Source of the DNA: a virus | Lineage: Duplodnaviria; Heunggongvirae; Uroviricota; Caudoviricetes | DNA length: 9,616 bases | Direction: 5' to 3' (one strand) | Virus record (IMG/VR): IMGVR_UViG_2636415712_000002 | Shown: piece by piece, positions 1 to 1,525 of the stretch | Position numbering within the stretch: the stretch's first letter is position 1 | How the letters are laid out: the number at the start of each line of letters is the position of its first letter | The notes under the pieces: generated by a model | Seen by the model: the letters and a program-made list of their open reading frames with translations, nothing else | Told to the model about the DNA's origin: nothing | The model's database searches: none | Made by a program: the position numbers and the translations under genes

Positions 1-271
1 GAAGGATATCGTTACTGCGGCGCAGTTCACGATTTTCACGTTCCGGCTCTTTCAGACGCTGACGTTCAGCGGTGGTGAGCCCTCCATCACCGCCCCCGGT
101 ATCCCGCTCATGCTGGCGACCCCAGACACGCAGAGTCTCCGGCGTACAGCCAATCTTTGGAGCAATGGAACAAATTGTCGCCCATTGTGAGTCATATTCG
201 CCCTGACTTTCCAGAACCATACGGACTGCCCGTTGACGGACTTCGGGGGAAAAACGAGTATTTTTAGTCAT
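1..271 (-). CDS. IS3-family transposase OrfA (IS629-like), partial; C-terminus lies beyond the window edge
   Basis: Minus-strand translation from the ATG at 271..269: [90 protein letters not shown]..., open to position 1. HTH-type N-terminus and coiled-coil/leucine-zipper-like tail are typical of IS3-family OrfA. Not in the supplied ORF track because it has no stop in the window. Confidence 0.85.
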
Positions 272-299
272 CCTGTTTACCTCTTTCTCAGGAAGTTTA

Positions 300-325
300 G
301 TCTCCAGGATTCCCGGGGCGGTTCA
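300..325 (-). repeat. Terminal inverted repeat (left end) of the IS629-like element
   Basis: Minus strand 325->300 begins TGAACCGCCCCGGGAATCCTGG...; IS3-family ends are TG...CA. The inner boundary of the IR is approximate. Confidence 0.55.
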
Positions 326-1174
326 CAATGGCGACAACAATTTCCCATTGAAGCGATGTGTCAGGTATTTGGTGTATCCAGGAGCGGTTATTACAACTGG
401 GTACAGCATGAACCCTCAGACAGAAAACAAAGTGATGAGCGGCTAAAACTGGAGATTAAGGTGGCACATATCCGCACTCGCGAAACATATGGAACCCGGC
501 GGCTCCAGACGGAGCTGGCAGAGAATGGCATCATCGTTGGTCGTGACCGACTGGCACGTCTTCGTAAGGAGCTGAGGCTACGCTGTAAGCAGAAACACAA
601 GTTCAGAGCGACTACGAACCCGAACCACAATCTGCCAGTTGCGCCAAATCTGCTGAACCAGACGTTCGCTCCTACAGCACCAAATCAGGTCTGGGTGGCG
701 GACCTGACGTATGTTGCCACACAGGAGGGATGGTTGTACCTCGCTGGCATCAAAGATGTTTATACGTGCGAAATTGTCGGCTACGCCATGGGAGAGCGCA
801 TGACAAAAGAGCTGACAGGTAAAGCCCTGTTTATGGCGCTCAGGAGCCAGCGCCCACCTGCCGGGCTAATCCACCACTCTGATCGAGGTTCACAGTACTG
901 CGCATACGATTACCGGGTCATACAGGAGCAGTCTGGTCTGAAAACATCAATGTCGCGTAAAGGTAACTGTTACGACAACGCTCCGATGGAAAGCTTCTGG
1001 GGAACGCTGAAAAATGAGAGCCTGAGCCACTATCGTTTTAATAACCGGGATGAAGCCATCTCAGTAATACGGGAATACATTGAGATTTTCTACAATCGTC
1101 AGCGTCGTCACTCTCGTCTGGGGAATATCTCCCCGGCAGCCTTCAGGGAAAAATATCATCAGATGGCTGCTTAA
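326..1174 (+). CDS. IS3-family transposase OrfB (DDE integrase core), 5'-truncated by the IS629-like insertion; probably non-functional
   Basis: Frame of track ORF 233..1174. Translation from 326: QWRQQFPIEAMCQVFGVSRSGYYNW...NQVWVADLTYV...HHSDRGSQY...YDNAPMESFWGTLK...ISPAAFREKYHQMAA, with D, D, E catalytic signature in the expected order. Track start at 233 (TTG) runs through the IS629-like IR and the antisense of orfA, so that N-terminal extension is an artifact. First in-frame ATG of the remnant is at 356. Confidence 0.8.
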   Translation, partial: QWRQQFPIEAMCQVFGVSRSGYYNWVQHEPSDRKQSDERLKLEIKVAHIRTRETYGTRRLQTELAENGIIVGRDRLARLRKELRLRCKQKHKFRATTNPNHNLPVAPNLLNQTFAPTAPNQVWVADLTYVATQEGWLYLAGIKDVYTCEIVGYAMGERMTKELTGKALFMALRSQRPPAGLIHHSDRGSQYCAYDYRVIQEQSGLKTSMSRKGNCYDNAPMESFWGTLKNESLSHYRFNNRDEAISVIREYIEIFYNRQRRHSRLGNISPAAFREKYHQMAA

Positions 1175-1207
1175 AAAAAGAACAAATGGTAGTGTCCGCT
1201 ATTGCCA
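326..1207 (+). mobile_element. 5'-truncated second IS3-family element (possibly IS600-like) retaining only orfB and its right end; right boundary approximate
   Basis: Sequence right of the IS629-like terminus at 325 encodes an IS3-family OrfB lacking its own orfA and its first few codons. The right end must fall between the orfB stop (1174) and where Nu1 homology begins (about 1205..1235); the exact IRR was not identified. Confidence 0.55.
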
Positions 1208-1525
1208 GTACACCTCAAACTACTCATTGCCAGATGGGAACTGACCGCAGAACAGGCTGTCGCACAGCAGTTAAAAAATCAGGTGTCAAAAGGAAATCTT
1301 ATCGATACCGGATTTTGTATTTTTGCCCTTAGTAAGCTGGCGATGGCTTTATCCAGTACGCTTGACTCCATTCCTTTGTCCATGCAACGACAGTTCCCGG
1401 ATTTAACGCCGCGTCATATTGATCATCTGAAAATCCTTATTGCTAAGGGAGCGAATCAGTGCGCGCGTGCGGGGGATAAATTACCGGATTTACTCGATGA
1501 ATATATCAGAACAACAACTGAGTAA
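1202..1525 (+). pseudogene. nu1: Terminase small subunit (lambda Nu1 homolog), C-terminal fragment; N-terminal DNA-binding portion replaced by IS sequence
   Basis: Translation ...ELTAEQAVAQQLKNQVSKGNLIDTGFCIFALSKLAMALSSTLDSIPLSMQRQFPDLTPRHIDHLK...LPDLLDEYIRTTTE aligns to the C-terminal ~85 residues of lambda Nu1 (...[36 protein letters not shown]...LPLSVQRRFPELENRHVDFLK...LLSEYIEQSG). No ATG start; upstream frame is IS-derived. Stop at 1523..1525 overlaps the A start, as in lambda. Confidence 0.8.

Follow-up and report, generated by a model that had tools for sequence, protein, structure and literature searches.

The stretch of DNA analysed here, a window of 9,616 nucleotides recorded as IMGVR_UViG_2636415712_000002, is the whole draft contig AMJY01000046.1 (9,616 bp) of Shigella flexneri S7737, the strain to which AMJY00000000 is assigned in a list of reference genomes (PMC5429569). 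Both ends of the window are contig ends, and the left end falls within the insertion sequence (IS) IS629, a repeat. As the window represents the entire contig, the sequence to the left of position 1 can be read only from other strains. From left to right the window comprises the end of an IS629-like element, the 3′ part of an IS600, the 3′ remnant of the small terminase gene nu1 and a lambda-like head-gene module which starts with the large terminase gene A and is cut in U by the contig end (Table 1). Neither cos nor the 5′ sequence of nu1 is found anywhere in the window. The nesting of IS629 in IS600 and of IS600 in nu1, already proposed in a first-pass annotation made from the sequence alone, is borne out by related strains, in which both insertions are flanked by 3-bp target duplications.

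Homology to intact prophages begins at position 1217, which corresponds to position 6001 of the prophage region of Escherichia coli FDAARGOS_943 (hereafter L001) and to the first base of nu1 codon 68. In FDAARGOS_943 the small terminase gene is intact (L001 5800-6309) and encodes 169 amino acids (aa). The nu1 remnant is 100% identical to L001 6001-6309, and the identity of the window to this strain is 100% over 1217-3500 and 99.45% over 1217-6345. A C-terminal remnant of nu1 had been recognised before, although with about 85 residues its length was underestimated; it holds 102 of the 169 codons. The remnant matches the Pfam family Phage_Nu1 (PF07471) only at positions 86-163/164 (E = 5e-19) and PHROG 57 at positions 88-189/199, and the C-terminal half of the protein reaches 45% identity to residues 86-180 of lambda Nu1 and 38% to the phage 21 protein. 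The C-terminal region for self-association and gpA binding is present; the N-terminal part is absent from the window.

The last A of IS600 (1217) doubles as the first base of codon 68. In CP026765.1 (L005) and UGYS01000001.1 (L010) the sequence reads ...GAAGAGAAAC before and AACTACTC after IS600, and the uninterrupted sequence is GAAGAGAAACTACTC. The entry of IS600 into nu1 was a clean and simple transposition between codons 67 and 69 with duplication of AAC. The predicted 107-aa product of the hybrid open reading frame (ORF) which spans the junction carries the annotation 'putative DNA packaging protein of prophage; terminase small subunit' in S. flexneri genomes, and its exact sequence occurs on 343 contigs.

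The segment 326-1217 shows 99+% identity to copies annotated as 'IS3-like element IS600'. A 1,264-bp IS600 was rebuilt from CP178302.1 (L004), a relative holding both halves of the element, and the window segment matches nt 373-1264 of this 1,264-bp element in relatives at 99.3-100% identity. The 5′ 372 nt, including the left inverted repeat (IRL) and orfA, are missing from the window. The terminal repeats are imperfect with TG...CA ends; the right one (IRR) lies in the window, and IRL (TGAGGTAGCC...) lies outside it and is present in relatives. In these relatives orfA encodes 100 aa, the orfB frame is open from nt 304 onward and nt 316-323 form an A7G motif. Identity, inverted repeats, an orfA (helix-turn-helix, HTH) and an orfB (DDE, rve) in the -1 frame, a slippery site and a 3-bp duplication all identify the element as IS600. 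The segment 326-1174 had first been described as an IS3-family orfB remnant; the family is right, but orfB is not a remnant since it is complete. The exact 272-aa OrfB variant of the window is encoded on no other contig in an index of 153 billion genes. Compared with the IS600 and IS629 of Shigella, which they resemble in 99% identity, TG...CA ends, 3-bp duplications and orfA/orfB with the A7G slippery site, the two copies in the window are ordinary, one nested in the other, and show nothing unusual.

Positions 1-330 are 98.8-99.1% identical over 330 nt to IS629/IS3411 copies annotated in thousands of E. coli genomes; only 325 nt of this element fall in the window. The reverse complement of 300-325, TGAACCGCCCCGGGAATCCTGGAGAC, is an element terminus, which we take to be the IS629 left inverted repeat, and the terminus TGAACCGCCCCGGG (reverse complement) ends at 325. 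A gene call on the minus strand (1-271) matches HTH_Tnp_1. In CP178302.1 CAA flanks both ends of IS629 and is therefore a 3-bp target duplication; another locus (L025) carries IS629 at the same IS600 position (nt 373-375) as the window. Identity, terminus and duplication agree in the assignment to the IS629/IS3411 group, and the boundary at 325/326 and the opposite strand that had been proposed for the element are exact. The insertion falls inside the OrfAB frame of IS600, 3′ of the A7G motif and before the orfB core, and the orfB frame stays open across the IS629 site. Because IS629 is nested in the OrfAB frame, this IS600 copy can presumably no longer make the OrfAB transposase and could move only in trans. 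An ORF of 313 aa (233-1174) runs from the IS629 end into the orfB frame of IS600; it is probably a by-product of the junction, and an equivalent ORF is gene-called in CP004057.1.

Table 1 Features of the 9,616-nt window (nt positions refer to the window unless an IS600 position is named)
Feature	Position	Strand	Evidence or remark
IS629/IS3411-like IS3-family element, left end	1..325	-	terminal inverted repeat and first ~90 codons of orfA; truncated by the contig end
CAA, right-hand copy of the 3-bp IS629 target duplication	326..328		IS600 nt 373-375
IS600 nt 373-1264 (3′ 892 nt of the full-length element)	326..1217	+	identity to annotated IS600; mapped onto the 1,264-bp IS600
IS600 orfB, complete, 272 aa, DDE integrase core	356..1174	+	Pfam HTH_21, rve, rve_2, rve_3; gene call
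IS600 right inverted repeat, ending ...CACCTCA	1191..1217	+	IRL/IRR comparison; junction reading
Hybrid ORF, 107 aa: begins with TTG in the IS600 right repeat, which contributes 5 codons ahead of the nu1 remnant	1202..1525	+	ORF listing
nu1 3′ remnant, codons 68-169 and stop, of a 169-aa small terminase	1218..1525	+	identity to L001; Pfam, PHROG
AAC, right-hand copy of the IS600 3-bp target duplication in nu1	1218..1220		junctions in L005 and L010
A, terminase large subunit, intact, 642 aa	1497..3425	+	Pfam GpA_ATPase and GpA_nuclease
W, head-tail joining, intact	3409..3612	+	gene call; comparison with L008
B, portal, pseudogene	3609..5202	+	extra T in run 4592-4597; ORFs of 351 aa and 207 aa
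C, protease/scaffold (S49 peptidase), 450 aa vs 501	5192..6544	+	153-nt in-frame deletion at 6345/6346
D, intact	6581-6928	+	gene call, Pfam, comparison with L008
E, intact	6986-8014	+	gene call, Pfam, comparison with L008
FI, intact	8066-8452	+	gene call, Pfam, comparison with L008
FII, intact	8464-8841	+	gene call, Pfam, comparison with L008
Z, intact	8828-9412	+	gene call, Pfam, comparison with L008
U	9409-9616	+	cut by the contig end

The insertion into nu1 is common to every S. flexneri chromosome examined, across two diverged allele types, and each of these chromosomes has one such locus; chromosomes with the IS600/nu1 junction are many and include 8401 (CP000266.1) and 2457T (AE014073.1). 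When 25 contigs were inspected for the 107-aa ORF that they share, no record was repeated; two paralogous loci in one genome, which would favour the formation of a chimera, were thus not encountered. At least five states of the same locus exist among the strains. Type I (8401, CP026765.1, CP097828.1, LR213452.1 and others) is characterised by a TerL of 642 aa and by an IS629 at IS600 nt 181-183 with the duplication CAC. Three of its members, 8401 (L044), CP026765.1 and UGYS01000001.1, have nu1 codons 1-67 directly against the left end of IS600 with AAC on both sides, and an intact cos upstream of the nu1 5′ half is seen in CP026765.1 and UGYS01000001.1; the 8401 locus as fetched has 39 bases to the left of IS600, too short to show cos. 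The exact 70-aa product of the nu1 5′ part occurs on 74 contigs. The suggestion that the IS elements had replaced cos and the 5′ half of nu1 is not upheld by these strains, in which the missing codons are located on the other side of the composite. Further insertions have followed in some of them: CP026765.1 (L005 5897-9721) carries IS911 inside IS629 inside IS600 inside nu1, and in UGYS01000001.1 (L010 5882-9721) a second complete IS600 lies inside the first one at nt 167. In CP097828.1, LR213452.1 and UAUS01000007.1 the nu1 5′ part and cos were lost by other rearrangements. An IS600 split by IS629 at nt 181 is also located on E. coli plasmids in unrelated contexts, e.g. the O121 plasmid NZ_CP028111.1; either the composite spreads as a unit or IS600 holds a hot spot for IS629.

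In type II (2457T, 301 by protein accession, 981, G1663 and others) the left end of IS600 abuts codon 134 of Rz, and the triplets flanking IS600 do not match (GGG vs AAC). The mismatch points to a later deletion that took the 3′ end of Rz, the intervening genes, cos and the nu1 5′ part. The resulting 134-aa Rz' is found on 279 contigs. In type II strains the 3′ end of A is changed, with a TerL of 636 aa, and the phage part shows nine derived differences. A subset of them (Shi06HN006 CP004057.1, CP178302.1 and CP182556.1) has IS629 at IS600 nt 373-375 with the CAA duplication, i.e. the junction of the window. Neither of the two window junctions has a contiguous match in 5,426 complete E. coli genomes and 72,556 plasmids. 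The upstream flanks of type I and type II are 99.97-100% identical, which argues for a deletion within one prophage. An origin of the left flank of CP178302.1 from a different prophage via IS600-IS600 recombination was considered and rejected owing to this identity between typical 2457T-type and 8401-type flanks. The flank of CP178302.1 itself (L004 1-1557) is only 94.8% identical to that of other 2457T-type strains (69 mismatches, 11 gaps) and its 134-aa Rz' is identical; the divergence could be due to sequencing errors or a local mosaic. In this strain indels also break gene A. In another Shigella-sized chromosome, CP026810.1 (L017 4550-10609), the early/lysis region agrees with that of the S. 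flexneri prophage at 99.86% identity and is followed by a different head module (Terminase_3, Phage_portal_3, Mu_F), an instance of lambdoid mosaicism at the lysis/packaging boundary.

The prophage of the 2a strains 2457T/301 (at ~0.72 Mb, 'prophage CP-933R terminase') and its counterpart in the 5b strain 8401 are the same prophage as that of the window, with the same IS600 insertion point, 107-aa 'Nu1 ORF and portal frameshift at 99.5-100% nucleotide identity. They differ from it in that 2457T has an uninterrupted IS600 and the 636-aa A, in 8401 the IS629 occupies IS600 nt 181-183 and not 373-375, and only the window has a 153-nt deletion in C.

The first-pass annotation had described the rest of the head module as well preserved. 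This holds for A, W, D, E, FI, FII and Z, which are 97-100% identical to the intact E. coli prophage L008, with A, W, FI and FII identical at the protein level (A: 642/642 aa), but not for B and C. The head genes are ~90% identical in DNA to those of phage 21. In B the T-run has six T compared with five in intact E. coli prophages, a +1 frameshift which breaks the Pfam match to Phage_portal_2 at profile position 288 and which is the only indel relative to L001 across 1217-6345. The run of six T is confirmed in L006, L021 and L025, S. flexneri loci of both allele types, and none of the S. flexneri loci reaching it differs from the window there. Consequently, the frameshift is an old and real lesion and not a sequencing error; it is a second inactivating lesion besides that in nu1. 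In C 51 codons of the scaffold part are deleted between 10-nt direct repeats (AACTGGCGGC). This deletion and the exact 450-aa C protein are known from this contig alone, and no tandem repeats were found around the deletion; it reflects either a genuine loss by slippage or a collapse in the assembly. L008 and its companion L009 (AAKB02000001.1) are two intact prophages in one E. coli genome with identical TerL, near-identical head modules and different early/lysis regions.

The gene order of the window, nu1 overlapping A, followed by W, B, C, D, E, FI, FII, Z and U, is that of lambda and phage 21, and in intact relatives cosN and cosB precede nu1 as well. There cosN is located ~225 nt upstream of nu1, as in lambda. 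From 5575 onward (GGGCGGGAGCGG...TTTCACTATTTATGAAAATTTTTCG) L001 can be aligned to the left ends annotated for lambda and phage 21; in the phage 21 record cosN occupies 1-12, the cosB sites R3/I1/R2/R1 lie at 50-166 and the small terminase gene starts at 189. In addition, two related phage records end at L001 5569-5574. The cosB-like region L001 5575-5800 contains three CCGGACAT motifs, one of them inside a palindrome. In lambda the N-terminal winged-helix domain of Nu1 binds cosB and positions gpA at cosN. By analogy, the N-terminal third of this Nu1 would be the cosB-binding domain, in which case the remnant in the window would keep only the self-association and gpA-binding part.

Taken together, the window is read, with a probability of about 0.9, as the head-gene module of a cryptic and defective lambdoid prophage (lambda/phage-21-like) in which nu1 was split by IS600, IS600 was then split by IS629, and B is frameshifted. 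No observation that contradicts the core nested structure was met. The events can be ordered as follows. IS600 transposed into nu1 between codons 67 and 69 with duplication of AAC, parting the N-terminal third of the gene from the remaining 102 codons, and IS629 then transposed into that IS600 at nt 373-375 with duplication of CAA. Later the IS cluster served as a substrate for strain-specific rearrangements such as the Rz'-IS600 deletion, the nested IS911/IS600 and other deletions. A functional cos-packaging prophage has cosN/cosB directly upstream of an intact nu1 and an intact portal gene, and the window has neither. As judged from lambda biology, terminase could not be placed at cos without a functional Nu1 and no proheads would be formed without the portal, so that the prophage would be unable to make or fill capsids. 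The expectation that it should not package its own DNA, the gene of the cos-binding subunit being destroyed, is in line with this. That the inactivation is recent, as had also been supposed, is true in evolutionary terms, with A differing from intact E. coli prophages by 1-4 nt in 1,929 nt, but not among S. flexneri strains, all examined chromosomes of both diverged types having the insertion.

Some observations weigh against parts of this reading. The N-terminal 67 aa of Nu1 in intact relatives lack detectable similarity to the DNA-binding domain of lambda or phage 21 Nu1 (BLASTP, Pfam and PDB sequence search); these residues gave nothing meaningful either in the PDB sequence search or in a relaxed scan against Pfam, and PHROG 57 is the only profile that spans them. 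Together with the cosB-like region of L001, these N-terminal ~70 residues suggest a distinct cosB/Nu1 specificity type, different from those of lambda and phage 21 and paired with phage-21-like A and head genes; both the residues and the cosB repeats are absent from the window. Furthermore, the two parts of the contig carry markers of different alleles. The IS part (IS629 at nt 373, 597A, 769C) matches the allele of Shi06HN006/CP178302.1; 597A is otherwise present in CP178302.1 and CP182556.1 alone. Over 1217-6345 the phage part matches CP097828.1 and LR213452.1, which are of the type with IS629 at nt 181, at 100% identity; it has their derived 4343C and 4758T and none of the nine differences of the 2457T type. 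The switch lies between 979 and 1660. Consequently, the linkage of positions 1-~1000 to this locus in S7737 is not secure, and the contig represents either a genuine recombinant or a chimera of the assembly; under both readings the junction nu1::IS600 is secure.

To the assembly chimera somewhat less than an even chance is given. In this case nu1::IS600 would be real and the IS629 at nt 373 would stem from another IS600 copy, joined in the left ~1.2 kb when the assembler took the wrong branch across ~450-900 nt that IS600 copies or alleles have unchanged in common. Besides the marker conflict between the IS part and the 8401-type sublineage (L006/L007), it is favoured by the window being a complete short draft contig that ends in repeats, and by a 272-aa OrfB and a 450-aa C which are both unique in the 153-billion-gene index, as a mosaic consensus would give. 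However, each S. flexneri chromosome examined has one such locus, and the IS629-at-373 junction, absent from the 5,426 E. coli genomes and 72,556 plasmids, is elsewhere seen only at this same locus in CP004057.1, CP178302.1 and CP182556.1. A second source copy within S7737 is therefore hypothetical, and the sequence would look no different after genuine recombination or after a separate insertion of IS629 at this position.

The allele question also bears on what lies to the left of the contig. S7737 might keep the 67 codons of the nu1 5′ half and cos directly to the left of an AAC-flanked IS600::IS629 composite, as in 8401, and a helper phage with matching cos specificity could then still package the prophage DNA in trans. 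The arrangement is real in CP026765.1 and UGYS01000001.1, where the cos region has 2 substitutions relative to an intact E. coli relative over 271 nt aligned, the nu1 5′ end of 8401 abuts IS600 likewise, and the 70-aa product is spread over the contigs mentioned above. For S7737 itself such a retention appears doubtful, as both sets of its closest relatives are without cos and the nu1 5′ part: those closest by IS markers (Shi06HN006, CP178302.1, CP182556.1) have the left end of IS600 against the truncated Rz, and those closest by single nucleotide differences in the phage part (CP097828.1, LR213452.1) have the composite against an inverted IS600 fragment. Very improbable is a selected function of the remnant, by which signals in IS600 or further upstream would drive expression of the hybrid 107-aa 'Nu1, the gpA-binding and oligomerisation part devoid of the DNA-binding domain, together with the intact gpA, and the former would act as a dominant-negative subunit that disturbs the terminase assembly of superinfecting phage-21-type phages and thereby protects S. 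flexneri. It would explain the persistence of the remnant across lineages, the 107-aa ORF being kept with an intact A in 8401-type loci and also being present in 2457T-type loci, and it would fit the 100% protein identity of A to intact E. coli prophages. However, the short divergence time accounts for this identity, the 2457T type has an A with a changed 3′ end and CP178302.1 a broken one, and the neighbouring genes B and C are decaying.

The structure read here as an IS600-split nu1 in a defective prophage is a known kind of IS-driven prophage decay; its truncated genes are already annotated in reference genomes, and nothing in it departs from known kinds. IS600 is one of five IS elements expanded in all Shigella species (PMC7373316), and the IS600 expansion in Shigella as well as IS-mediated pseudogenes and inversions are documented (PMC7373316; PMC1550401). 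The decay of this prophage by IS600, IS629 and IS911 is consistent with that expansion. The mix of markers of two allele types in one contig is a caution against taking repeat-borne contig ends as real linkage. The biological weight of the finding is small, as it adds another case of prophage decay by IS elements in Shigella.

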